From assembly GCA_043803945.1 (NCBI GenBank), contig JAZDJN010000087.1:288001-352000 (forward strand): a DNA stretch of 64,000 nucleotides. Direction: 5' to 3'. The position numbers and the translations under genes are program-made. This document shows positions 20,266 through 33,395 of this stretch, one piece after another (positions within the stretch are counted from its first letter, which is position 1; the number at the start of each line of letters is the position of its first letter). The notes below the pieces were generated by a model. That model ran no database searches. It saw only the letters and a program-made list of their open reading frames with translations, and was not told the origin of the DNA. The DNA is from a bacterium. GTDB taxonomy: Bacteria > Bacteroidota > Ignavibacteria > UBA10030.

Positions 20266-21981
20266 ATGAACCGAAGATTGATACCCCTTCTCTTTCTTCT
20301 TGTTGCATCCTTTAGTATTGCTGCTGCTCAACAAGATCTTCTGGCCGACATCCGAAATCTTTCTTCTGACGAAATAAAATTCGATGCCTTCAGGCTCGAT
20401 ACCGACCAGGAGGTGACTATCACCGGAACCGTTACCGGAGATCGTAACAGAAACGTCTATAACGATGTCTGGATTCTAAATACTCAAACCCGGGAAATTG
20501 TCTGGAAGTTGAAATATTCCAAGCGATCTTCGCGTTCCAGGGGATTAGTCGACTTTGACGATAAGCTCTCTCTGTCTAAGGGTGAATATGAAATCTATCT
20601 CTCAGCTTTTCCTTCCTATATTCAGGATGTTAACAACTTCGGTGATTTGATGGAACTGTTGACGGATAAGATTTTCCGCTCGAGTGATCGCGAGAGAAAC
20701 TACCGCCGCCTTGTCGTGACGGTGAAAGGAAGGGGTGTTCATTACGGTAACGAGGGGGTTGAGAAACTTCATGCCAGGCTTTGTGATGACGCCGTCGTCG
20801 CCATGACCAGGCAATCTCATGACGAGTACAGCAAACAGGGTTTCACGCTTGACAAACAGATGGAGTTGAATATCTACGCCATTGGAGAACTGCGCGACGA
20901 CGGGCAGTTCGATTTCGGCTGGATCATCAACACCAAAACGGGCGAACGTGTCTGGTCTATGGAGTACCGATCATCCAGCCATGCCGGCGGTGATAAGAAG
21001 AACAGGATGGTGAAGGAAACGATTACACTCCCGGCTGGATCCTACGCTGCACACTATGTCAGTGATGATTCCCATTCCTATGGCGATTGGAATGCGGCGC
21101 CACCGTTCGATCCGATGTTCTGGGGGTTGACCATTCACACAAAAGATCCGGCAATGAAAAAGTATACCCGCCTATTTGAATTCAATGCCTTTGAAGAAAA
21201 AAATGTCATTGCCAGCTTAACCCGTGTTCGCAGCGAGAAATTGGAATCGAAGGGGTTTACCCTGACCAAGCCCATGGATGTTCGCATCTATGCAATCGGG
21301 GAAGGATCCAACGACCGGATGGTTGATTACGGATGGATCGTCAACATGAAAACGCGTTCAAAGGTCTGGTCGATGGAGTATAACGAAACCACACATGCCG
21401 GCGGGGGCCAGAAAAACAGAATAGTCAATACCATTATCCATCTTGAGAAGGGAAGTTACATGGTGTACTATACCACGGACGACTCTCATGCCTACCGCGA
21501 TTGGAACACCGCCGCTCCGTACGATCCCGAACATTGGGGGATAACACTTTCTTCTGCCGACCCGGAATTTAATGCGACGAGTATCCGCCCGTATTCGGAG
21601 ACCGACGACCCGTCAATCCTTGCACGGCTTGTTGGTATTCGCGATGACGAGCGCCGCAAGCAATCCTTTAGCTTATCGAAGAAGAGCGATCTTCATCTCT
21701 ACGCTCTGGGTGAAGGGCGCGATGGCGACATGGTGGATTATGCATGGATTGAAGATGCCTCGACACGGAAAATTGTGTGGGAGATGACGTATCGTTCGAC
21801 TGAGCATGCTGGCGGGTCAAAAAAGAACCGTGTCTTCGATGGCACCATCACACTCCCCGCGGGCAAGTACATCCTCTTCTACGAATCGGATGGCTCGCAT
21901 TCATTCAACAACTGGAATGAAGACCCGCCTGACGATCCTTATCATTGGGGAGTAACGATTACACTCAAGAGGTCGGATTGA
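20266..21981 (+). CDS. Secreted hypothetical protein with four ~140-aa internal repeats
   Basis: Signal peptide; recurring F.L.K..D..IYAIGE, DYGWI, VW.M.Y, HAGG..KNR, SDDSH...WN..PP.DP..WG.TI blocks (first copy degenerate). Confidence 0.85.
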   Translation: MNRRLIPLLFLLVASFSIAAAQQDLLADIRNLSSDEIKFDAFRLDTDQEVTITGTVTGDRNRNVYNDVWILNTQTREIVWKLKYSKRSSRSRGLVDFDDKLSLSKGEYEIYLSAFPSYIQDVNNFGDLMELLTDKIFRSSDRERNYRRLVVTVKGRGVHYGNEGVEKLHARLCDDAVVAMTRQSHDEYSKQGFTLDKQMELNIYAIGELRDDGQFDFGWIINTKTGERVWSMEYRSSSHAGGDKKNRMVKETITLPAGSYAAHYVSDDSHSYGDWNAAPPFDPMFWGLTIHTKDPAMKKYTRLFEFNAFEEKNVIASLTRVRSEKLESKGFTLTKPMDVRIYAIGEGSNDRMVDYGWIVNMKTRSKVWSMEYNETTHAGGGQKNRIVNTIIHLEKGSYMVYYTTDDSHAYRDWNTAAPYDPEHWGITLSSADPEFNATSIRPYSETDDPSILARLVGIRDDERRKQSFSLSKKSDLHLYALGEGRDGDMVDYAWIEDASTRKIVWEMTYRSTEHAGGSKKNRVFDGTITLPAGKYILFYESDGSHSFNNWNEDPPDDPYHWGVTITLKRSD

Positions 21982-22075: not shown

Positions 22076-24934
22076 TCATCCCACCACACACACTCCTAAC
22101 AATCGTATACGAGCTCCAACGGGATTCTCGAGGGATGTTTTTATCTGTGATAGGATAGCACCGATGGCACCTTCGTAGGATTGACGAATCTTGTCCCACG
22201 GAAAGGTGTTCTTGGAAAATTCATATGTTACATCTGATGACTTCTTCTCTAATCGATTGACTAACCACTCGTCCGGCAATACATGAGCATCACCGCTAGG
22301 ACTGACCCGTATCATTTTCAGTTCTCTATGTTGCTTGCCACCCTCTAGGTCAACAGTAACTAGTGTCGTGATAACAGTGTAAGGTTCTTGATCAACGTCT
22401 GTCCGATGGAAGAACGTTGTGTCTCCTGGAGTGATGAGTTCCTGGCCTTGAGCGAGAAGGGCATCAATTAAGGGATGACCCAATCCAAGAAGTTCTGCAG
22501 AGCGCTTTCTCATCGCAGTATTGCGGTCAAATGTAGCAAGTTGATATTTTGGCAAGACACTTGGATGTTTCTGTAATATTTTTGGCGTAATGATTTCGGA
22601 AAACTCTCCCCGGGGCAAGATGGAACCGCCCATGCGAAGTATTGCAGCTTCGGCAAACTGCCTTAGGTCGTCAAGCGAAAAACTCCCCTCAATTTTCAAA
22701 TAGTCTTGGAGATTAAATGTTGTTAAATCCATTGTCAGATTTTTTAATGCATCAATTGCTTGATATGCATTCCTCAACGCTTCTTCGATTTCTTTCGCTG
22801 TACGTTGGTAATCTGTATTAACAAGAGCATTCCGATACCATTCCAGATAGTGCGGAGCGGATCCCATATAGCCTAAGATCTCTGATCTAAAATCTTCTCT
22901 CGGTTCACCGGTGAGTTCATCAAGTTTACCAATCTGGGTGGCGATCTCTTTTAATTTATCATCCAGCATCAGGTAAATGTTTTCTTCTACCGTCCCCTCA
23001 GCAATGAGATTGTAAACCTGCACAGTATCTTTCTGTCCATAGCGGTGAATTCGACCAATGCGCTGCTCAACAGCCATTGGATTCCAGGGTAAGTCATAGT
23101 TGAAAAGAATATGGCCGATTTGGAGATTAATTCCCTCACCTCCGGCCGAGGTGCAAATGAGAAATTGTGCACCATTCTCCTCCCAAAACCGTTCTTTGGC
23201 TTCAATCTTATCGTCTAATGGACCGCCCTTGATGTGGGTTACTTTATCTGTTCCATAGATAGCCTGGAGTTTTTCTTCGAGGAAGAGCAGGGTTTCAACA
23301 TACTGCGTAAAGATGACAAACTTCTCATCTGGATTTTCTATGCGAATAGTATCAACTGCTCTTGTGAGAGTGTCAAATTTTCGATCTGTCCCGGAAGGAA
23401 CCAGATTAAGAAGGTTGGCTACTTTCGCGACTTCGTTTGGTATTGTCGCATCTGCATAAATTCCTTCATCGCCGTCTTCATCACCATCGAGCGACCACGA
23501 AGTTGTTTCATCTGGAGGAAGATAAGCTCGGCTAACTTTCTGACGGATCTGTGCAATAAACGTGTCGATATCGGCTTGTCTTGATGGAGTATTTGGTATC
23601 GCCTCAATTTCTGATGCAAGTTGACGCATTTCATCCTGCAACCGAAGGATCTCATCGGAGAGTTTAGCCGTAGAATGTCCTTTCCGACGCTTGTTTTCCA
23701 GTTCAAGCTGTTGTCGTATGAGAAGAACAAGAAGTCGTCGCCGGAGAGCTTGCCTGATAGCTCGCGTACTTGATGACATGATCTTTTGGAATGTTGTCAT
23801 CACAAAGCCAATGGCACGCTGTGCTGTTGTGGTTTTACCGCCATTTTCCCCGAGGCCTGCTCGTGTATAGCCCTCTTTTAAATACTCTGTAAGCTTGTCG
23901 TAAAAGACTTGCTCTCGCATAGCCAATTGGAAAGATTGTGTATGAACCTGGCGACGCATGAAGATAGGGTTACCATCTTTATCTGTTACATCACGCTTTG
24001 TCCGGCGTATCATCACCTTGTTTAAAAAGCCTCTATGGAGAGAAAGCGATTCCTCTGAATCGAAGAGGGTATCGTCGAGAAGCTGAATTAACGACCAAAA
24101 TTGAAAGCCATTGCCTTGATGAGGTGTTGCCGAGAGGAAGAAGAGATCTTTCGTATGATTCTTTATAGCCTCGGCAAATTTATAGTTCAACGTTGATTGA
24201 ATTTTCTTCCCATATCGAAGCCTCGTGAGATGATGAGCTTCATCGAACACAACAATATCCCACCGTGGTCCCCCTAAGAGACGTTCCATTCGCTGTATGC
24301 GCTTGAGGGCATCAATCGAAGCAATAACTCGATGGTGAGATTCCCACGAAGCAGGGGAGTGATCGGTAAAATCGATTCCGAGGATTTCAAAATCTAGCCT
24401 GAAAGCATCGCGAAGCTCACTCTGCCAGTTTTTGATGAGCCCCGCAGGAGTAATGATAAGAATTCGATTGGACTCCCTCCGTGTAATGAGTTCACGAAGG
24501 ATCATTCCCATTTCGATTGTTTTTCCCAATCCAACTTCGTCTCCGACCAGCAGGCGACGATGGGGCATCGAAACGACATCTCTTGTTATCAGTATTTGAT
24601 GGGGAAGCAGGTCGGTTCTACTGTTCGAAAGTTGCCCTCCGGCATTTTGCAGTGGAAGCTGAAATGATAGTTGTTTCAATAAAAAATCGATCGGTTTATC
24701 ATAATCCCCGATTTTCACCCGTTCCCATAAATCGGGAGCCGGCTCAAGACGTTCTATGGGGAAACTGTGAAGATGACGCCCCGTTCCATCTTCATACATA
24801 ACGTCAGCCTGGTAGCTTCCATAAATATCACTCACACGATAGACTTCCACGATGCCAAGATCTTCCCGGCCTCGAATACGTACTCTTTCGCCAACCTTTG
24901 GACGATAGAGAGTTTGATTATCTGTCAACTGCAT
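22076..24934 (-). CDS. SNF2/RapA-like SF2 helicase (defence-associated)
   Basis: LLPHQ, LLVGDEVGLGKTIE (I), IVVFDEAHHL (II), FLSATPHQG (III), GGEGINLQ (V), YDLPWNPMAVEQRIGRIHRYGQ (VI). Start is ATG 24934 or TTG 24928 after AGGAG; the ORF-track extension to 25048 is repeat DNA. Confidence 0.9.
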   Translation of the reverse strand: MQLTDNQTLYRPKVGERVRIRGREDLGIVEVYRVSDIYGSYQADVMYEDGTGRHLHSFPIERLEPAPDLWERVKIGDYDKPIDFLLKQLSFQLPLQNAGGQLSNSRTDLLPHQILITRDVVSMPHRRLLVGDEVGLGKTIEMGMILRELITRRESNRILIITPAGLIKNWQSELRDAFRLDFEILGIDFTDHSPASWESHHRVIASIDALKRIQRMERLLGGPRWDIVVFDEAHHLTRLRYGKKIQSTLNYKFAEAIKNHTKDLFFLSATPHQGNGFQFWSLIQLLDDTLFDSEESLSLHRGFLNKVMIRRTKRDVTDKDGNPIFMRRQVHTQSFQLAMREQVFYDKLTEYLKEGYTRAGLGENGGKTTTAQRAIGFVMTTFQKIMSSSTRAIRQALRRRLLVLLIRQQLELENKRRKGHSTAKLSDEILRLQDEMRQLASEIEAIPNTPSRQADIDTFIAQIRQKVSRAYLPPDETTSWSLDGDEDGDEGIYADATIPNEVAKVANLLNLVPSGTDRKFDTLTRAVDTIRIENPDEKFVIFTQYVETLLFLEEKLQAIYGTDKVTHIKGGPLDDKIEAKERFWEENGAQFLICTSAGGEGINLQIGHILFNYDLPWNPMAVEQRIGRIHRYGQKDTVQVYNLIAEGTVEENIYLMLDDKLKEIATQIGKLDELTGEPREDFRSEILGYMGSAPHYLEWYRNALVNTDYQRTAKEIEEALRNAYQAIDALKNLTMDLTTFNLQDYLKIEGSFSLDDLRQFAEAAILRMGGSILPRGEFSEIITPKILQKHPSVLPKYQLATFDRNTAMRKRSAELLGLGHPLIDALLAQGQELITPGDTTFFHRTDVDQEPYTVITTLVTVDLEGGKQHRELKMIRVSPSGDAHVLPDEWLVNRLEKKSSDVTYEFSKNTFPWDKIRQSYEGAIGAILSQIKTSLENPVGARIRLLGVCVVG

Positions 24935-24947
24935 CTCCTGGATGATG

Positions 24948-25261
24948 GAACACTGATTACACTGATGCGACCGATTTTCACTGATGTGTGTTGATCGTGT
25001 TCTTTTCTGTGTTATCGGTGTTCTATAAAATTGGAACACTGATGACACCGATTCAACTGATTTTTACCGATCTGCCTGCCCGCCATGCCTTCGCGTTTTG
25101 TGCGTCCGCCATCTTTTTGGCGGAACCTTTTGGCGGGTGATCATCGTGTGTTTTTCTGTGTCATCTGTGTTCCATTCTTAAATCGGAACACCGATCACAC
25201 CGATGCAACTGATTTTCACAGATCTGTTTACATCGTGTGCTTTTCTGTGCTATCGGTGTTC
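24948..25261. repeat. Three tandem 76-bp palindromic units downstream of GxxExxY
   Basis: GAACAC...GTGTTC units at 24948-25023, 25034-25172 (76 bp after removing a 63-bp insertion) and 25186-25261; spacers 10 and 13 bp. Confidence 0.9.
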
Positions 25262-25645
25262 TATTTCCTTGCGATCGTTTGTAAATATCTTCCGCCGTAT
25301 TTCAGGTTTCTTGCCAAAATTTAGCAGCAATCCGATTTCGATATTGGTTGCCTTGAGGTAGTTAATGAGTTGTGTTTCGTGTTCTTCAACCATTCCTTCG
25401 GCAGCCTTCAACTCCAATATCACCACATTATTAACAACAATATCGGCAAAGTAATCACCAACCAACTCTCCTCGATAATGGACTTTAATTGGTTGTTGAT
25501 TTTTCGCTACCAAACCTTCACGAGCGAGTTCTATGATCATTGACCGTTCATACACTTTTTCTAGAAATCCATATCCCAGTCTATTATAAACTTCATAGAA
25601 GCAGGCAATAATTTTCTCCGTCAATTCGTGGTGTAAATATTCCAT
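25250..25645 (-). CDS. GxxExxY protein (PD-(D/E)xK nuclease superfamily)
   Basis: LGYGFLEKVYE, YFADIVV...VILELKA, QLINYLKAT...GLLLNFG; GGAGG SD. Confidence 0.92.
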   Translation of the reverse strand: MEYLHHELTEKIIACFYEVYNRLGYGFLEKVYERSMIIELAREGLVAKNQQPIKVHYRGELVGDYFADIVVNNVVILELKAAEGMVEEHETQLINYLKATNIEIGLLLNFGKKPEIRRKIFTNDRKEIEHR

Positions 25646-25668
25646 ACTTTCCTCCCTTAAAAGAAAGC

Positions 25669-26031
25669 GAACACTGATGACTTCAATCTAACTTATCTTT
25701 ATAGATCGGTGAACATCATGTGTTTTTCCGTGTCATCTGTGTTCTATTCTTAAATCGGAATACTGATAGCCCAGATGCAACCGATTTTCACCGATCTGTG
25801 TTGATCGTGTTCTTTTCTGTGCTATCTGTGTTCCATTTCTTTAAGATATAGAACACTGATGACACCGATGATACTGATTTTCACAGATCTGTGTACACCG
25901 TGTGCTTTTCTGTGTTATCGGTGTTCTATTTTTAGAGAACATTGATGACACTGAAAAATCTGATTTATACCGATCTGTGAAACTCATGTTCAATCTGTGT
26001 TATCAGCCTGCCTGCCGGCAGGCAGGTGTTC
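25669..26031. repeat. Four tandem 75-76-bp palindromic units upstream of GxxExxY
   Basis: Units at 25669-25744, 25758-25833, 25851-25926 (76 bp each) and 25937-26031 (75 bp plus a 20-bp CCTGCCTGCCGGCAGGCAGG insert); spacers 13, 17 and 10 bp. Confidence 0.9.
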
Positions 26032-26667
26032 TATCTTTCTGATAAGTTTATTGAGTTCTTTCTGAATCTCTTCTTTTATCGTCTTCCAGGTTACTTTCCA
26101 TACCATACGCGGCATGCGCACATTATCTGCATCATCAAAATAGCTGAGGCCGCGAAAAACAGGAAACAGGTCGGCTTCGGGAAACTTCTTGTTGTACATA
26201 CTCATCATGTGCTGCAATGAGCAATGTTTTTTTTCGAGAGCATACACGTCGATGAAGTCCTTTTTCGAGCCTCGGGATGCAATCGCAGAGAGTTTCATGC
26301 AGGCAAGATCGTCGAGGGATGCGAGTGAGCAGCCAACAGATTTCCACTCCACTAATGGACTTATTATGGTATATGGATACTCAATTATGGATATCCTGAC
26401 TCCACCGATCGTAGCATAGAACGTACCCTCATCGATATTCACGGCCAGGGGAATCATCCCTGCGCTTTTGATTTTGTTGGTCCATGAAGCCGGATCGCGA
26501 ATGCTGACCGGAGAGAACCAATCCAGATCAACAGACTTCCTATGACCAAGCATAAGCGCGATGGCTGTTCCGCCAGCGAGATAGAAACCGTGTCCTGAGA
26601 GGAATGGCCCGAGTCGTTTGAGAAGCTTGAACTGAGGTGAAGAAAGAGTCTCCTGGAAATATTTCAT
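25990..26667 (-). CDS. AbiEii/AbiGii-family nucleotidyltransferase toxin (type IV TA)
   Basis: FYLAGGTAIALMLGHRKSVDLDWF, DLACMKLSAIASRGSKKDFIDVY, LSYFDDA. ATG 26667 overlaps the upstream stop (ATGA); alternative start 26688. Confidence 0.88.
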   Translation of the reverse strand: MKYFQETLSSPQFKLLKRLGPFLSGHGFYLAGGTAIALMLGHRKSVDLDWFSPVSIRDPASWTNKIKSAGMIPLAVNIDEGTFYATIGGVRISIIEYPYTIISPLVEWKSVGCSLASLDDLACMKLSAIASRGSKKDFIDVYALEKKHCSLQHMMSMYNKKFPEADLFPVFRGLSYFDDADNVRMPRMVWKVTWKTIKEEIQKELNKLIRKIEHLPAGRQADNTD

Positions 26668-26999
26668 CGCTGTCCTCGTGCTTGCCATGGGTTAGAACTC
26701 TCCCCCGCTATCCAAACATCTACCTTATCCTTGGGCAGGTTCAATGCAAGTTGCCAGAACCGCAATCTCTTCGGATCCAGACCGGCACCCTGACGCTGGA
26801 GCATCCAACTTTTGAGCCAGGCGTTGCCTGTGGTTGCAATGAGCCACTTCACGGAATCCCATCCGCCCGCCTCAAGAACCTTCCGAATAATCAACTCAGA
26901 ATCTTGCTGCCAGGAGAGCGATTTCTTTGGATATTCCCAAAAGAGATCAAGAACATGTTTGGGGATTTTTACACGTTTTCGGATTAGAGTATTGTTCAT
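26664..26999 (-). CDS. DUF6922-like antitoxin partner of AbiEii
   Basis: LFWEY....L......ELIIRKVLE.G.W..VKWL...G motif, LDPKRLRFW; translationally coupled to the AbiEii gene; GGAG SD before ATG 26999. Confidence 0.7.
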   Translation of the reverse strand: MNNTLIRKRVKIPKHVLDLFWEYPKKSLSWQQDSELIIRKVLEAGGWDSVKWLIATTGNAWLKSWMLQRQGAGLDPKRLRFWQLALNLPKDKVDVWIAGESSNPWQARGQR

Positions 27000-27019
27000 A
27001 AATCTCCGATCATTGAATA

Positions 27020-27176
27020 GCACACCCGCCTGCGTGCCTTCGGAGGGCGGGCAGATGACACCGAAAAAATTGATTTACACCCGCCATAAAGAACGGCGGG
27101 CAAGCTGATCTGCCTGCTCGCCATGCCTTACCTTTTGGCGAGTGAGTATCGTGTCCAATCAGTGTCATCAGTGTTC
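27020..27176. repeat. Eighth palindromic unit (75 bp) carrying three small hairpin insertions
   Basis: Removing 27026-27052, 27081-27105 and 27112-27141 leaves GCACACAGATGACACCGAAAAAATTGATTTACACTGATCTGTGAGTATCGTGTCCAATCAGTGTCATCAGTGTTC. Confidence 0.8.
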
Positions 27177-27674
27177 TAAAATATCGTTCGGTGAGTATAA
27201 AATGATGCCGCGCACGTTAGACAATTGTCGATCAGCACTGGCTATAGCCTGGATACGTAAGCGATCTGCAATCGCAATGAACAGAGCATCGTTGGTCAGC
27301 AGTCCATACTCTCGTTGAAGTCTCAGTGCAGCAGGAAAATCTTCAGCCACAAGAGACTCAAACTTGAACCCACTCGCAAGTAATCCCTTAACTATATCAG
27401 AATACCGATTCATAAGACGAACTCGATCGGGGCGCTCTGAAAGAGATCTGTCAGGATTCCCTCCAGTCGTCCATGCATTGTCCCGTGCTTCGACCATCAT
27501 CAACCTATGCATTACCTCCGCAAGTTGTTGGAGCCCAACTATTCCGATCACATCCCTTTCAGCGCAGCGCCGAAGAAGTTTTGTACATTGTTCGGACCTA
27601 TGAAGAACTCCATAGACAAGAACATTTGCATCCAGGAGGACAATATCAGACTTTTTGATTTCGTTGAGATTCAT
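27168..27674 (-). CDS. PIN-domain (VapC-like) toxin
   Basis: VLLDANVL, LAEVMH, YGLLTNDALFIA, IASADRQL acidic PIN residues. Confidence 0.88.
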   Translation of the reverse strand: MNLNEIKKSDIVLLDANVLVYGVLHRSEQCTKLLRRCAERDVIGIVGLQQLAEVMHRLMMVEARDNAWTTGGNPDRSLSERPDRVRLMNRYSDIVKGLLASGFKFESLVAEDFPAALRLQREYGLLTNDALFIAIADRLRIQAIASADRQLSNVRGIILYSPNDILEH

Positions 27675-27943
27675 TGTTCGTAGTAATCCTCCTCCATTAT
27701 TTCCCTTAAGTCATCAGTTGAGATGTTGAACTTAATAGCAAGGAGGGATTCAAGCGCTTTCAATCGTAACTCCCTACCGAGTGATTCTTCCTGATCATAC
27801 TTGAGCACTGCTTCTTCAATAATTGTGCTGATCGGCTTACCGTCCCTGATTGAACGTTGTTTCAACTTATCAACAATACCTTTATCAAGGATCGTGCCAA
27901 TTTTAACTTTGGATCGTTCGGCAGTATCTCTCTTTGTTTGCAT
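27671..27943 (-). CDS. Putative antitoxin (ribbon-helix-helix-like)
   Basis: 90 aa, KVKIGTILDKGIVDKLKQRS..DGKPISTIIEEAV, acidic tail; ATGA overlap with the PIN gene. Confidence 0.7.
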   Translation of the reverse strand: MQTKRDTAERSKVKIGTILDKGIVDKLKQRSIRDGKPISTIIEEAVLKYDQEESLGRELRLKALESLLAIKFNISTDDLREIMEEDYYEQ

Positions 27944-27953
27944 GACTTACTCC

Positions 27954-28928
27954 TTAATTTGAATATTGTAGTTCTATGTCTGGTGTCAACATCTCCATTA
28001 ACGACATTCCGCCATGACGAAATATTTTGCTTGCGCTAGATCCTTGTGGTCTGTTTTTAATACGCCCCCTCAGCATAGCGAGTCGTTTGTGAGTAAGAAT
28101 TTGGAGTTCTGGGTAAGTCAAATTTAAGTCTTCATTCTCCTCGAAGATCCGAAACCGATTGTTATTAATGACATCAAGAGCTTTATCTGATTTCAACTCG
28201 GATTCATATCCGGCATGGAGATATACATATCCATGATCGCTCGTTATAATGATTCGATAATCACGGGGAATACTTAATACGATGTTTTTCCAGGCAACAT
28301 CAAATTGTTTCATAATGGCATCGAAGTGGCCAGAGGACTTTGCTTCGAAGTTCATATAGGTGCCATCTGGAAAACTCGACCAAAGGAGCAGGGGTGAGTC
28401 TGTATTTGGAAATTCATAATGACGAATTAGAGTGTCGTAATGACGGGCGATAATTTGTCTATCCTTGAATTCCTTTCGAGTTCTAAGTTGCGATGGTCCA
28501 ATTCTCTTTCCCAAAAGACGTTGATCGATATATGAGACGGTATCACTTGGCAGGGCAGCGTAACCATATCGGATTGAAGCTATTGAGAAATTAGTTTTTA
28601 ATGCAAGTATTTCAAGAAGCGGAAGTTCCCTTATAGAAACACCATCAAATACCACGATGGCAGTTTTAGGAGACTGAAGTTCATCTAAAAGTGATGGTGA
28701 TGATTCAGATGCAGCTACAATTTCATCGTAGATTCCAGTGGCGGCATTCAAAATGAGATCTTCGACAGCTTTTATTTTCTTTTCTCCCGATTCCAGGTAC
28801 TCTTGTGAATCGAAGTACTCAAAGCGTTCTTTCGACCATACCTCCTGAACGAGCCATTTCTCTAAAGATGGCAATCGCTGTCCACTGGAATAGAGAATAT
28901 CATAGATATTTCGAATACTTGAATTCAT
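27954..28928 (-). CDS. Stand-alone PglZ-like alkaline-phosphatase-superfamily protein
   Basis: IVVFDGVSIRELP, ALPSDT, IIITSDHGY, FRHGGMSLMEMLTP match the PglZ D, LPS.T, SDHG and HGG.S..E...P motifs. Confidence 0.8.
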   Translation of the reverse strand: MNSSIRNIYDILYSSGQRLPSLEKWLVQEVWSKERFEYFDSQEYLESGEKKIKAVEDLILNAATGIYDEIVAASESSPSLLDELQSPKTAIVVFDGVSIRELPLLEILALKTNFSIASIRYGYAALPSDTVSYIDQRLLGKRIGPSQLRTRKEFKDRQIIARHYDTLIRHYEFPNTDSPLLLWSSFPDGTYMNFEAKSSGHFDAIMKQFDVAWKNIVLSIPRDYRIIITSDHGYVYLHAGYESELKSDKALDVINNNRFRIFEENEDLNLTYPELQILTHKRLAMLRGRIKNRPQGSSASKIFRHGGMSLMEMLTPDIELQYSN

Positions 28929-28929
28929 C

Positions 28930-31560
28930 TTAATGAACGGCCTCTTCTTTTTGTGATATTCCTTTTAGTTCTGCTTTGTAAAGTGCTTGTGTAAAAGAAG
29001 GTAGTTGTTCAACGAACTCTTCTACTTGTGCCTTGTTGTATTGGCCGGTTTTCTCAATTAGTATTTCAGCGTTCAAATTAGCGATTCCAGTAAGCGAGCC
29101 TCTAATCGCTGAGGGGTACGTGCTTAATTCTGTGCTTGATTGTTGAATAAACACAGTAAATCGGATCCACCGAGCGGCAGGATCAATCAATTCACCTAAC
29201 TTCTCTGCAACTTTTTGTCGCAGGTTATTGATGGATCCTTCATTTGTTGTCTGAATGCCAAACTCGCTTGCTGTTTCTTCCACTATTGCTGGAGGCATGG
29301 TGGTTTCAGGAATCGTTGAATCTATTACTCCTGGTTGCGGAACAACTGGTGGTTGTCCAATGGGAAGTTGAGGAGATCCACCCTCCTCCACAAATGGCTC
29401 TACCACGAGAACATCATTCCATTCAGTTCCTGCAAAAGCCGGTGTACTGCCACAGTATCTTGTTCGAGCATTCTTCAAACCAACGCGCTTGTCCTTACAC
29501 AATTGTGAGAATGCTTGAGTTAGAATAGTTTCAGCCGTGAAGACGGGGAATCCAAGAGTTTTTTTATAGGTCGCCTTGATTTCACCAACCGTCCTATCAA
29601 AAATGAGTTTACCTGGTTCCTCTTGCAGACAATCAATAATATGATCCTCAAATCTTTGACGTGGATAAATATTTTGTTGCAGTTGTGTTAGTACCTCTGT
29701 CCGATTTGTGGCGGAGCCAAGTGGTTCAAGTTCAAATTCAAGCGTTTGTTCTCCGTTTGCTTTTGTGTGGATTGACACATAATACAGACCGGCCTTCTTA
29801 AAGACCTCATCGATATATCGAACGTTCTCAATGCTGATTTTCTCGTATTGTCGTTTTCTCTCAGCATCGTTAGTGTGGCCGGCAAGATTTGAAGCTGACA
29901 TTGCGAGCTGCGCCCATTTTACTAAATCAGGATTATCCAGGGCGTTAAATGATTCGGATTTTGGCTCAAGAAGAATTATTTGATTGCGTATTTCAGCGCC
30001 ATGATAAACAAAGGCTTTCTCTGTCTTGTCTAATCGGTGGGGTGCGAGAACCCAGCGGAGGCTATTTTTATCCAGTTGGGAAAGAGAATTTCGTGCTTGT
30101 GAAGAATCTCTAAAAATAACTGCATTTGAATCACCAAATACATTTACCCGCCAACGAGTTAACGAAAACTCTCGTGCATCGTTAGGATCGATCTTCAGGG
30201 CACCATACTCCACCTTAGCATACGGTTTTTCTTGAGTGTCGAAGAAATAAGATTCTTCTGAGCGCTGGAAGTAAGCTCCAAGTTTATCAAGCGCTTGCAA
30301 TGTCGCTTGGAAGACATTAAAATCGTCTCCTGGTTTTATGACCTGACGTTGAAGCTCTGCTTCCTTTATTCCTCTAATCGAACCACTACCAGTAAGAGTC
30401 GCACTAAGCGTAGCTGAGACAACTTCAGTAGAAAATGGCAAGGAATGCAGATCTCTTAAATCTGCTTGTGCGCAATTTAAGATGTGTTGCCCGGGATCGA
30501 GATCTGTGAGTCGATTACGAATACCGTTATCGTTGATATCGATGTGAGCTGCGGTAATGATATCTGTCTTTTTATAAGTGTTACGAACGACATTTGCCAG
30601 AAGCCCAAGTGGTCCTCTGTTACCTTGAAAATTTTGTCTAAGGACTCTATGAAGAAACATATTGAGTAGCTCTGGAGAAAATGGGAAACTACTTCTCAAT
30701 TGATCGGAATATTTTTCATCTACAACAATGCCAACCTTCTTCCATTGATTGACATAACTGGAGATGACATTATCGACTTTCGCCCGATCGACGGAATTGG
30801 CATTTGAAAAAAGGCGATGGAGGATCACATTTTGTCGATCACGGGGTTCAGTGAACTTCACATTTATAGGACCAACTCGTTTTAAGGTATCTCCCGGTTC
30901 TTTGGTTGCTTCGTATACCGATGCGAACATAGTAACGGAAGTTGTATCAGTACGATTTGCTTCCTCGCTCAATTGCTGAAGAAAAAGGATATTCTGCTTT
31001 TGGTTAAAATCATGTGGCATACTTTGAATACCCATCTCGAGCTCATCGAGAATGAGGATTAATTTTTTACCCGATAAGGCAATTCTGAGCTCATCGAGAT
31101 TTGGTACTTTCTTTGGATCAATCTTTGAGGCCAATCCAAGTTTATCGAACACCATCCACCAAATCGAATCGAGAGGAAAATCTGTAAACTTATGAATTAT
31201 AACCGTGACGTCTTCCGGGAGATTGCAGGTTAGATTATGTTTAGCAAGCCAAGTTCTGGCAATTGATGGACTGGTGAAGAGGTGATAGATTAACAATTCG
31301 AGATGTGACTTACCGCTTCCTTTGAATCCTTCCAGAAGAAATAATCCTGGTGTTCGTTCACTCGAATTGAACCGCTGGTGTAAATTTTCCAATACTATCT
31401 TGACGTCAGCGGTTGGATAGGTGATATCGAAGAAGTCTTGGGGTCGGGACTCAATAGATTTCTTCTTTTGATCCCTTAGATTCTCAAGATCGATAACTCC
31501 TTCGATTCCATCTTTTTTGAGGACTTCTGGGCGGGGGGTAATGATGTCGGAAAGGCTCAT
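28930..31560 (-). CDS. DUF499-family AAA+ ATPase (BrxC-related)
   Basis: FFDITYPT, Walker A GFKGSGKSH, Walker B LILILDEL, FPFSPEL, FQGNRGPLGLLA; AAGGAG SD. Confidence 0.85.
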   Translation of the reverse strand: MSLSDIITPRPEVLKKDGIEGVIDLENLRDQKKKSIESRPQDFFDITYPTADVKIVLENLHQRFNSSERTPGLFLLEGFKGSGKSHLELLIYHLFTSPSIARTWLAKHNLTCNLPEDVTVIIHKFTDFPLDSIWWMVFDKLGLASKIDPKKVPNLDELRIALSGKKLILILDELEMGIQSMPHDFNQKQNILFLQQLSEEANRTDTTSVTMFASVYEATKEPGDTLKRVGPINVKFTEPRDRQNVILHRLFSNANSVDRAKVDNVISSYVNQWKKVGIVVDEKYSDQLRSSFPFSPELLNMFLHRVLRQNFQGNRGPLGLLANVVRNTYKKTDIITAAHIDINDNGIRNRLTDLDPGQHILNCAQADLRDLHSLPFSTEVVSATLSATLTGSGSIRGIKEAELQRQVIKPGDDFNVFQATLQALDKLGAYFQRSEESYFFDTQEKPYAKVEYGALKIDPNDAREFSLTRWRVNVFGDSNAVIFRDSSQARNSLSQLDKNSLRWVLAPHRLDKTEKAFVYHGAEIRNQIILLEPKSESFNALDNPDLVKWAQLAMSASNLAGHTNDAERKRQYEKISIENVRYIDEVFKKAGLYYVSIHTKANGEQTLEFELEPLGSATNRTEVLTQLQQNIYPRQRFEDHIIDCLQEEPGKLIFDRTVGEIKATYKKTLGFPVFTAETILTQAFSQLCKDKRVGLKNARTRYCGSTPAFAGTEWNDVLVVEPFVEEGGSPQLPIGQPPVVPQPGVIDSTIPETTMPPAIVEETASEFGIQTTNEGSINNLRQKVAEKLGELIDPAARWIRFTVFIQQSSTELSTYPSAIRGSLTGIANLNAEILIEKTGQYNKAQVEEFVEQLPSFTQALYKAELKGISQKEEAVH

Positions 31561-31760: not shown

Positions 31761-33395
31761 CTATTTCAAGTTGGCAAACTTCGCCGCTTCCGGCAACAGG
31801 CTTAGCGCTTTCTGGAACTGCGTATCAACCTGCAGCATGACAGGATACCAGCCGTCGTTTGCCCAGAAACTATGGGCGATATGCCCTTTGATTCTTGTCT
31901 TGATATAGGCAATATCCTTTTCAAATTCACTCTCGTTGATTGTGATCTCTTTCTTCTTGATAAAGGCTCTGAACTCTGCAAGGATCTTCTCGTCAACGGT
32001 AAAGGATGTGAGATATTTTTTCAGATCGCTGCTCCAGTTTTGCCGAATCCCCTGTCCGGCTCCATCGAGGTAAGCTGTTACAAATTGATAGAAGAGGTCC
32101 CGGCGGAAGAGGTCCTCCGTAGTTTTGGTCAGGTTCATCGGTTTAATAACAAAGTCGGGTGTAACACCGCCGCCGCCATAGACGATGCGCCCCTTATTGG
32201 TTTTAAACATCGGGCGGGTTGTATCGGCAGTCTCTTTAAGGTCTTTCTTGTGTTCGAGATTATCGCCTTCCTGCTCGTTGCGCTCAAAGGCCTCACGCTG
32301 GTATGCAGATTTATCTTTCCCTTCGTACATGCGCTGAATTAATCTTCCGCTTGGAGTATAGTAACGTGCAATGGTCAGCCGGATGCCGGAGCCATCGGGA
32401 AAATCGAGCTGCCGCTGGACAAGCCCCTTGCCAAAGCTTGTCTCGCCAACGATGAGGCCGCGGTCCCAATCCTGGATTGCGCCAGCAACGATTTCGCTTG
32501 CACTGGCAGATGCGTTATTCAGCAGAATAACCAGAGGGATTTTTTCGTACTCCTGACCTGTTGTTGCCACATACCGTTCTTCTATTTCCGGCCTTCGTGC
32601 TTTGGTGTATACGATGTTCTTCGGTTTATCCTTCGTTCCGCCATCGAGAAAGAGGTCGGCCATGCGTACCGCCTGTTCCATCACACCGCCGGGATTGTTC
32701 CGCAGGTCAAGAATCAGTTTTTTCATCCCTCGATCCTTCAAGCCGGCAAGAGTACGCTTCATTTCATCATCGGTGGTCAGAGCAAACTTGTTGACACTGA
32801 TATACCCAACCTCGTCGTTAATCATGGTTGCTACATCGACACTCTTGATATCGATAATATCGCGGACGATATCGTACGTGAGGAGTTCCTTCACACCGGG
32901 GCGAATGATGCCGACCTTCACGCGCGTTCCCTTGGGGCCCCGCAGCCGTTTTGACGCTTCTTCAACACGAATACTAACGGATGCACTGTCGTTGATTTTT
33001 ACAATCCGATCGTTTGCCATAATGCCGAGCCTTGCAGCAGGACCGCCGCCCATTGGTTCCAGCACAATGATCGAGTCGTTCAGTTCGCGTATTGACAGCC
33101 CAACCCCCTGATAGTTACCGCGCATCTCCTCCGTCACCCGTGCAAATTGCGTGGGCCTGAAATACATGGAGTGCGGGTCCAGGCTGTCGATCATCCCGTA
33201 GATCGCCCCATCAACAAGATTTTTTACGCTCACCTCCTCAACATAGTACTTCTCTGTGAAGCTGAGAACATCCTGGAACTTCTTGATCTGTTCATACATA
33301 TTGTCGGCAGAGCTTAACTCTCGGGATTGAAAACCGAGAAACAGTGCAACGAGGACAAGGACGACAAGCGTGCCGGCCGAAAACTTCTTTTTCAT
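31761..33395 (-). CDS. S41 family carboxy-terminal processing protease (CtpA/Prc type)
   Basis: LDPHS.Y, PDZ region, LILDLRNNPGG, SASASEIVAGAIQD, GETSFGKGLVQ, LTIARYYTPSGR.IQ. Confidence 0.95.
   Translation of the reverse strand: MKKKFSAGTLVVLVLVALFLGFQSRELSSADNMYEQIKKFQDVLSFTEKYYVEEVSVKNLVDGAIYGMIDSLDPHSMYFRPTQFARVTEEMRGNYQGVGLSIRELNDSIIVLEPMGGGPAARLGIMANDRIVKINDSASVSIRVEEASKRLRGPKGTRVKVGIIRPGVKELLTYDIVRDIIDIKSVDVATMINDEVGYISVNKFALTTDDEMKRTLAGLKDRGMKKLILDLRNNPGGVMEQAVRMADLFLDGGTKDKPKNIVYTKARRPEIEERYVATTGQEYEKIPLVILLNNASASASEIVAGAIQDWDRGLIVGETSFGKGLVQRQLDFPDGSGIRLTIARYYTPSGRLIQRMYEGKDKSAYQREAFERNEQEGDNLEHKKDLKETADTTRPMFKTNKGRIVYGGGGVTPDFVIKPMNLTKTTEDLFRRDLFYQFVTAYLDGAGQGIRQNWSSDLKKYLTSFTVDEKILAEFRAFIKKKEITINESEFEKDIAYIKTRIKGHIAHSFWANDGWYPVMLQVDTQFQKALSLLPEAAKFANLK

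Follow-up and report, generated by a model that had tools for sequence, protein, structure and literature searches.

The DNA analyzed here, called the window below, is a stretch of 64,000 nucleotides from a bacterium of the Ignavibacteria (GTDB lineage UBA10030; assembly GCA_043803945.1, contig JAZDJN010000087.1, positions 288,001 to 352,000 of the forward strand). Its minus strand carries a BREX-related (BR) defense operon, which was probably colonized by a family of near-palindromic repeats tied to a small nuclease-fold gene of the GxxExxY family. Eight copies of a 76-nt repeat were located between positions 24948 and 27176 by reading of the sequence, by repeat search, and with a covariance model, which found no ninth copy in the 64-kb window. 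In reading order, the operon consists of the genes for a DUF499 ATPase, a PglZ-like protein, VapB, and a PIN protein, one repeat, the genes for DUF6922 and AbiEii proteins, four repeats, the GxxExxY gene, three repeats, and the gene for an SNF2 helicase. A first-pass annotation of the window had given the same order and shared orientation for the part from VapB to the helicase.

The DUF499/BrxC-like ATPase (28930..31560; all genes and coordinates in this paragraph refer to the minus strand) matches PF04465 with 29.1 bits against a cut-off of 23 and the PADLOC model HmaC at 3.9e-16. It is followed by a standalone PglZ-like protein of 324 aa (27954..28928), which has 13 orthologous loci and matches PglZ models weakly and in part (PADLOC PglZ, 2.3e-07; NCBIfam NF033445, 2.5e-04, far below its cut-off). 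The 90-aa antitoxin-like protein in the VapB position (27671..27943) has no Pfam, PADLOC, or NCBIfam match and lies upstream of PIN in 7 orthologous loci; the PIN-domain (VapC-like) protein (27168..27674) matches PF01850 at 1.7e-09, and its orthologue comes after the PglZ-like gene in 9 loci. Next are the DUF6922 protein, which occupies the position of the AbiEi partner of AbiEii (26664..26999; PF21956, 6.8e-09), and the AbiEii-family nucleotidyltransferase toxin (25990..26688; PF08843, 1.7e-12), an ancestral member of the operon; both have orthologues in the loci L035, L039, L041, and L044. The GxxExxY protein (25250..25645), 131 aa long and of the PD-(D/E)XK nuclease fold, belongs to PF13366 (1.3e-41; 142 bits against a cut-off of 22) and TIGR04256 (134.5 bits against 35). 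The operon ends with an SNF2/BrxHII-like helicase of 952 aa (22076..24934; Pfam SNF2-rel_dom and Helicase_C; PADLOC HmaA, 1.3e-96, and BrxHI/BrxHII, 1.6e-95), the orthologues of which are 54-83% identical to it. The open reading frame (ORF) listed for this gene is longer (990 aa, start at 25048) as a result of read-through of the nearest repeat; the true start is the ATG at 24934, behind AGGAG, since homologues align from residues 3-14 of the 952-aa form.

This operon matches the Type-3 BR system, whose definition in the text passages of PMC12839542 includes a DUF499 ATPase and a BrxHII-like Swi2/Snf2 helicase without a nuclease domain. Both are present in the window according to Pfam and PADLOC, and the protein with the weak, partial PglZ matches described above is a candidate for the standalone PglZ of the published system, which likewise contains embedded auxiliary effectors. 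The DUF1156 N6-methyltransferase of that system, present in orthologous loci, is missing from the window locus, the genome holding just a 23-35% identical paralogue. The window copy further differs from the published description in lacking a 148-aa gene and in containing eight repeats and an inserted GxxExxY gene. The near-constant presence of VapB-PIN next to PglZ is not mentioned in the passages of PMC12839542 consulted.

Repeat units and the ends of adjoining genes

Each unit reads GAACACYGATNACACYGAT ... ATCNGTGTTC, with ends of the form (TA)GAACAC ... GTGTTC(TA); TA or TAT is common after the 3' end, and TA is occasionally found before the 5' end. The terminal 19-mer GAACACYGATNACACYGAT had 13 matches with up to three mismatches as opposed to 0.19 expected, a number reached in 0 of 100 shuffles. 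Together with the presence of the same repeats in other genomes, this rules out chance or an assembly artefact as their origin. A CRISPR array was also considered and dropped, because of the spacer length (10-17 nt) and the long palindromic units. A scan of positions 24000-28000 against Rfam returned two chance microRNA matches, far below gathering scores.

The units, given here on the plus strand, are numbered u1 to u8. The first one (u1, 24948..25023) is 76 nt long, matches the covariance model, and folds into a single hairpin of -21.1 kcal/mol (z -4.45). Unit u2 (25034..25172) is split at 25075-25136 by a 62-nt GC-rich palindromic insert; nhmmer matches it as model halves 1-41 and 41-76, and its covariance-model score is 74.4 bits. 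The GxxExxY gene has its final four codons (I-E-H-R) and its stop in the right end of u3 (25186..25261), and u4 (25669..25744) ends 24 nt upstream of that gene's start codon, with the ribosome-binding site in between. Units u5 (25758..25833) and u6 (25851..25926) match both the repeat profile and the covariance model. In u7 (25937..26032), which codes for the AbiEii tail EHLPAGRQADNTD and its stop, a perfect 18-nt GC palindrome (26008-26025) is inserted just inside the right end. Finally, u8 (about 27013..27176; covariance-model match at 27047/27051-27176) is degenerate and contains three nested GC-rich hairpins, and its right end codes for E-H-stop of PIN.

The inserts in u2, u7, and u8 belong to another palindromic element, a tiny GC-rich one of 18-66 nt (CYGCCYGCC..loop..GGCRGGCRG), with 41 strict matches in the source genome. 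Its sites include 25075-25136, 26008-26025, and three within 27013-27140 in the window, and, elsewhere, C26:36697, C58:39902, and C99:29099 (C numbers denote contigs of the source genome). Copies nested in the 76-nt repeat recur at one and the same position, slightly inward of its GAACAC end; the arms of other palindromic repeat families harbor the element as well.

The observation of the first-pass annotation that three modules each end a few bases inside a repeat, whose GAACAC codes for their terminal residues and which supplies the stop, is borne out by the sequence and the translations. PIN ends in ..NDILEH, GxxExxY in ..KEIEHR, and AbiEii in ..KIEHLPAGRQADNTD (also written ..IEHLPAGRQADNTD). 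All three take E-H from the GAA CAC of the repeat end and have their stop within the repeat, that of AbiEii being placed behind the nested hairpin insert. The homologues in repeat-free loci stop at ..SPDDLE(x) in the case of PIN and short of the IEH.. tail in that of AbiEii; the PIN and AbiEii tails are therefore derived from the repeat, as the annotation had supposed. The GxxExxY subfamily is conserved up to ..FTNDRK, after which the 120 closest database homologues have variable tails: 34 end in (E/A)H(x), 4 have tails of the frame-2 NTD..TD kind, 13 stop within five residues, 66 are of other kinds, and 3 lack the anchor. The tip of the repeat, TA-GAA-CAC-TGA, contains stop codons in two of three frames, which accounts for the one frame shared by PIN, AbiEii, and GxxExxY.

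Similar gene ends are found throughout the source genome, where 16 ORFs with 100 codons or more run into the end of a repeat, e.g., those for phosphoglycerate mutase (..NEH) and a histidine kinase (..IAHG). Nine of these, plus AbiEii, have an in-frame GAA CAC and a stop 9-12 nt inside the repeat; four stop at TA-G and one at T-GA (the hyphen marks the repeat boundary), and a deep read-through on C99 is a doubtful ORF. Passages of PMC5896051 and PMC3184786 provide precedents for small repeats that overlap gene 3' ends.

All eight units fold as one long imperfect hairpin each, with z between -2.99 and -5.99 in six of them and of -1.73 and -2.39 in the remaining two. Each arm contains CAC-N-GAT motifs about 9-10 nt apart, that is, about one helical turn. 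Folding of this kind, and the location of the units at 3' ends and in operon junctions, would be expected if the repeats were host RNA elements (processing sites, stabilizers, or terminators) selected at gene ends, with their spread being secondary, in the manner of the RNase III-cut stems around 23S rRNA intervening sequences. The general enclosure of GxxExxY genes by inverted repeats, similar to that of the rRNA intervening-sequence ORF in the passages of PMC4990558, points the same way. However, pairing of the N of CAC-N-GAT with its partner is not maintained, judging from a by-eye reading of the repeat alignment, and a compensatory change is seen in 1 of 14 consensus pairs only, which makes hairpin covariation uninformative for structure. 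Recognition by a protein fits these two features better than does a selected RNA stem. Terminator-like sites were not above shuffles (4 found versus 2.4 expected, and none on the coding strand), and the patchy presence among relatives and genome-specific variants described below fit a replicating element better. We thus regard selection for an RNA function as quite unlikely to be what explains the repeats, while noting that RNA processing at the hairpins and mobility could coexist.

Orthologous operons and the loss of two genes

Searches with the PglZ-like protein as the query, with one genome per species, identified 13 orthologous loci in Ignavibacteriota, Melioribacteraceae, Chromatiales, Bacteroidota, Latescibacterota, and Thermoguttaceae, all with the same gene order. 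In 9 of the 11 loci long enough to tell, the PglZ-like gene is immediately followed by VapB-PIN, and DUF6922-AbiEii is present, in the same order, in 4 loci. Twelve of the 13 loci lack the repeat according to both nhmmer and the covariance model. The only locus with repeats, L035, is that of the closest relative, G004, with 73-83% protein identity to the window. Since repeat-free loci carry VapB-PIN and DUF6922-AbiEii in the same order, both gene pairs predate the repeats.

A DUF1156 methyltransferase of about 1010-1050 aa precedes the helicase in all seven loci that reach the helicase, and a gene of about 146 aa is found in most of them. In L035, repeats occupy the same junctions as in the window, with one more after the PglZ-like gene; a 1028-aa DUF1156 methyltransferase is located with three repeats on one side and four on the other, and a 148-aa gene has a single repeat on either side. 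In the corresponding positions, the window contains the 4-unit and 3-unit arrays, and both genes are missing; tblastn did not find either of them elsewhere in the source genome, apart from the DUF1156 paralogue mentioned above. The methyltransferase and the 148-aa gene were lost in the window lineage, and the losses may have occurred by recombination between repeats. The tandem unit of L035 includes the last ~24 nt of AbiEii, indicating that arrays grow by tandem duplication.

L035 has two further peculiarities. Its PIN gene is frameshifted (L035:11354-11855), with residues 1-140 and 140-167 in different frames, and its PglZ-like gene ends in ..KTAH inside the extra repeat. The window operon is flanked by genes for a 571-aa protein without a Pfam match (20266-21981) and a CtpA-like S41 peptidase (31761-33395). 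L035, which extends over ~7.3 kb on the DUF499 side and ~0.5 kb beyond SNF2, yields no tblastn match to either; the neighborhoods of the two operons thus differ at least on the peptidase side.

Gene content between PIN and the methyltransferase varies among distant orthologous loci, which contain, for example, HamA and a helicase in L044 and an OLD-like ATPase in L046. Defense modules inserted between PIN/AbiE and the methyltransferase, or after the latter, lie at L044:12904-16026, L046:1689-3440, L047:14134-15980, and L037:4750-6578, and include HamA with a helicase (Hachiman-like), an OLD-like AAA_21/TOPRIM protein, and an AAA_15 ATPase. No repeats were found at the borders of the variable modules in those loci.

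These comparisons bear on the idea, put forward in the first-pass annotation, of a cassette system without IntI that has the repeats as its recombination sites and captures, shuffles, and excises gene modules; VapBC, AbiE, and GxxExxY would then be cassettes, and the tandem repeats empty ones. The likeness to integron cassettes is real: the genes are co-oriented and promoterless, an imperfect palindrome abuts or overlaps each stop, and the content is of the toxin-antitoxin kind. Every module ends in a repeat, the repeat-GxxExxY-repeat arrangement recurs in at least eight contexts, the arrays sit where two genes are missing relative to L035, and gene content between PIN and the methyltransferase differs among distant orthologous loci. 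As the annotation had also stated, neither IntI nor attC is apparent. The core sites of attC are RYYYAAC ... GTTRRRY, to which the unit ends (TA)GAACAC ... GTGTTC(TA) do not conform; no attI was seen, and a Pfam scan of 15 ORFs between 17184 and 38312 detected no integrase domain or other recombinase. The remaining evidence speaks against cassettes. VapB-PIN and DUF6922-AbiEii, far from changing with breakpoints at repeats, stay put as ancestral operon members in repeat-free loci; the predicted variation of cargo between PglZ and SNF2 with breakpoints at GAACAC/GTGTTC was not observed, as the variable content of orthologous loci has no repeats at its borders; and the missing methyltransferase was not found elsewhere in the genome. 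Nor is the repeat specific to this locus: it is dispersed, with solo copies adjoining phosphoglycerate mutase, aconitase, AcrB, and similar housekeeping genes rather than cassettes. We therefore consider a cassette system very unlikely. The integron-like interpretation was partly right, in that GxxExxY with its flanking repeats, alone among the modules, behaves as an insertable one and the arrays do mark the places of missing genes; capture at repeat boundaries does not extend to VapB-PIN and DUF6922-AbiEii, and growth of the arrays by tandem duplication, gene 3' ends included, speaks against their being empty cassettes.

Dispersal of the repeats and their linkage to GxxExxY genes

A profile search with nhmmer identified 45 matches at 28 loci on 20 contigs of the 5.5-Mb source genome. 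Most copies are single and located between ordinary genes, such as those for phosphoglycerate mutase, aconitase, malate/lactate dehydrogenase, AcrB, glycoside hydrolases, and a two-component pair. Of 40 relatives belonging to the same order, 17 carry the repeat according to the covariance model. Short (76-131 nt), non-coding, and present in many copies with inverted ends of ~17 nt, the units have the properties of miniature inverted-repeat transposable elements (MITEs). The phosphoglycerate mutase beside a solo repeat had no match at 1e-50 in five genomes of the same family.

A second array occurs on contig C65, around another GxxExxY gene, which is 80% identical to the window copy and located between mod and res of a type III restriction system. 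The order at this site (C65:48197-53655, or L016:6198-11656) is three repeats, mod, two repeats, GxxExxY, one repeat, and res. The mod gene is split into ORFs of 234 aa and 301 aa, with the middle of the PADLOC profile missing, and the candidate defense genes PDC-M04A/B are found just upstream of the type III locus.

Copies of GxxExxY with at least 60% identity were found in 9 of the 40 relatives. Among the 12 loci at this level of identity, including two in the source genome, the repeat is present on both sides in 9, on one side in 2, and on neither side in 1; none of 8 more distant loci (<60% identity) gave a convincing repeat match. In the loci flanked on both sides, one repeat ends ~20 nt before the start codon and the other overlaps the stop, and the modules are co-directional with their surroundings in at least eight different neighborhoods. 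Covariance-model matches occur in 8 of the 9 genomes with such a copy, G012 being the exception, although these kin are not independent.

The proteins and their flanking repeats diverge together. The window copy pairs with that of G004 (81% amino acid and 78% nucleotide identity), that of C65 with G040 (88% and 82%), and that of G013 with G008 (81% and 80%). According to this pairing, the two modules of the source genome belong to different lineages and have different repeat subtypes, one of 76 nt and one of 83 nt. The repeat that flanks the gene in G030 has 19 matches in G030 and none in the source genome, G004, or G040; G040 has repeats solely at its two GxxExxY genes; and the solo repeats of each genome resemble the flanks of its own GxxExxY gene.

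Matching flanks are a wider property of the family. Nine of 11 GxxExxY paralogues of the source genome have them, above roughly the 98th percentile of 599 control ORFs, as do 20 of 29 loci across the phylum, above the 99th percentile of mismatched flank pairs. The phylum-wide flank arms consist of short purine-rich sub-repeats. Other paralogues of the source genome (C19:233-628, C36:332-706, C12:31188-31577, C85:6390-6767, C106:7505-7699, C30:26031-26420, and C38:30356-30760) are each bracketed by a different repeat family, e.g., CCACGGAGACACGGAG, CGCCAAGGCGCCAAGG, and AACCGCAAAGGA, with a few further copies elsewhere in the genome.

The MITE-like anatomy leaves room for a simpler relationship, in which GxxExxY is a mere passenger between two copies of an ordinary MITE moved in trans by some transposase. 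Small size, terminal inverted repeats, and high copy number are all consistent with it, as are solo repeats in genomes where no close GxxExxY gene was found, and MITE pairs flanking genes are described in passages of the review PMC3184786. Yet no element with these ends carries a transposase; the inverted end pairs on C21, C68, C118, and C82, considered as candidates for an autonomous element, are not transposons. Y1 transposases (PF01797) have 12 matches in the genome, none of which lies at the 28 repeat loci, the nearest being ~7 kb away on C72. Their open frames are 76-223 aa long (e.g., C31:48012, C66:7543, C62:8471, C18:83277, and eight more), and most are nearer in size to RAYTs (REP-associated tyrosine transposases; REP, repetitive extragenic palindrome) than to the IS200 TnpA. 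Furthermore, neither co-divergence with the flanks across at least eight contexts nor the possession by unrelated paralogues of a flanking repeat family of their own would be expected of a passenger. On this evidence, a passenger role is unlikely.

A possible nuclease-repeat partnership

The GxxExxY protein has the features of the PD-(D/E)XK nuclease fold. D68, E78, and K80, of the D..ExK nuclease motif, are invariant in 22 sequences, and G26, E29, and Y32, of the GxxExxY motif, are conserved as well. Its AlphaFold2 model (mean predicted local distance difference test score, 90.6), in which the tail 121-131 is disordered, resembles Cas4, the archaeal Hjc resolvase, and lambda-exonuclease-like nucleases in Foldseek comparisons (template modeling scores, 0.43-0.59); the best E value in a sequence search of the PDB was 0.87. 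At least 7,967 GxxExxY/PF13366 proteins were found at E <=1e-20 among 8,000 candidates scored, and the family is carried by 37 of 61 sampled genomes of the phylum. Literature that names "GxxExxY" or "PDDEXK_3" in full text assigns no function to the family and makes no mention of flanking repeats, and none of the papers on Ignavibacteria repeats among the matches listed deals with such repeats.

The closest parallel is with REPINs (hairpin-forming REP doublets) and their single-copy Y1 transposases, the RAYTs. In PMC3116915 and PMC3337134, a gene present in one or two copies is flanked by palindromes that populate the intergenic DNA of that genome; the same is seen here, with GxxExxY in the place of the RAYT. 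Further likenesses to the passages of PMC3116915 are repeat variants specific to genome and gene copy, ordered tandem clusters that include flanking sequence, and copy numbers that range from gene-only (here G040) to dozens (here G030 and G037). In contrast to what is described there, the associated gene is a PD-(D/E)XK-fold GxxExxY rather than a Y1 (PF01797) transposase, the unit is a 76-85-nt palindrome of CAC-N-GAT motifs rather than a GC-rich REP doublet, and the gene and its repeats occur in many contexts, whereas the inheritance of RAYTs is described as mostly vertical.

Bacterial MITEs, as presented in passages of PMC3184786 and, for QMITE1/2, of PMC5896051, share with the repeats terminal inverted repeats, hairpin potential, intergenic position, overlaps of 1-50 bp with gene 3' ends, and element-supplied C-terminal extensions. 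They differ in that no target-site duplication or parent insertion sequence was found here and in the tight link of the repeats to one small non-transposase gene. Similarly, the 23S rRNA intervening sequences with an S23p/four-helix-bundle ORF, in the passages of PMC4990558, comprise a short ORF within terminal inverted repeats, have short tandem sub-repeats ahead of the ORF (GACAGAT heptamers in that case), and are regarded as selfish; unlike the elements studied here, they reside in rRNA instead of protein-coding operons and contain a different ORF family.

We consider it likely that a MITE/REPIN-like repeat population tied to a PD-(D/E)XK nuclease gene inserted into the BREX-related operon, which then lost genes. 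The repeats would form a dispersed family of 76-85-nt near-palindromes with a ~570-bp repeat-GxxExxY-repeat module as their home, capable of inserting co-directionally between genes. Such a module may have entered the operon before the source genome and G004 split from their common ancestor, landing just upstream of the helicase gene; the operon would have contained the DUF499 ATPase, PglZ-like, VapB-PIN, and DUF6922-AbiEii genes, the DUF1156 methyltransferase, the 148-aa protein, and the SNF2 helicase. Repeat copies would then have spread into its very short gene junctions. Insertions over a native stop could be tolerated because the tip brings a stop in two of three frames, leaving genes to end in ..EH or ..EHR or at TA-G. 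Arrays would have grown by tandem duplication and, in the window lineage, the methyltransferase and the 148-aa gene would have disappeared between flanking repeats, with the 4-unit and 3-unit arrays left behind.

Several observations weigh against this scenario. The deletion breakpoints cannot be placed at ~80% identity, a 3-unit array is more than one crossover between two single repeats would leave, and the assembly, of the metagenome type with 118 contigs, could have collapsed a locus or hidden a polymorphism in it. The repeat copies examined show no consistent target-site duplication, and a search for inverted end pairs 250-5,000 bp apart revealed neither a transposase nor a longer element with the same ends, with the proviso that contig breaks could hide one. 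The linkage to GxxExxY is imperfect, too: of the 31 relatives that lack a copy with 60% identity or more, 9 nevertheless match the covariance model (13 matches in G023, 7 in G017, and 6 in G029), G012 has such a copy and no covariance-model match, and there is no GxxExxY gene within 2 kb of the best solo repeats in G029, G018, G038, and G025.

With regard to what moves the repeats, the GxxExxY nuclease is the prime candidate for an enzyme that may act on or mobilize them. We tentatively suggest, as a possibility that falls short of even odds, that GxxExxY proteins, which make up a large family of PD-(D/E)XK proteins of ~125 aa, are nucleases recognizing and mobilizing, or maintaining, the palindromic repeats that bracket their own genes, with each gene lineage keeping a cognate repeat family that amplifies into genome-wide solos. 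This would parallel the REPIN-RAYT relationship, but with an enzyme of the restriction-endonuclease fold or a resolvase-like one. The cassette-like look of the operon, including the loss of the methyltransferase, would then be a by-product of the activity of the nuclease. The colonization by repeats is in itself a new example of a known phenomenon; the partnership between nuclease and repeat would be a variation on the REPIN-RAYT theme.

For the annotation of such genomes, the ..EH tails and the long "ORFs" that run through repeats should be recognized as artefacts of the element. The locus illustrates how small repeats remodel defense operons, with the C termini of proteins rewritten and junctions filled, and here the repeats coincide with the loss of a self-protecting methyltransferase from a BREX-related system. 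GxxExxY/PF13366 genes are common, and a repeat linked to the nuclease suggests what this widespread family may do: the co-diverging palindromic bracket makes it a testable candidate for a new nuclease-repeat partnership.

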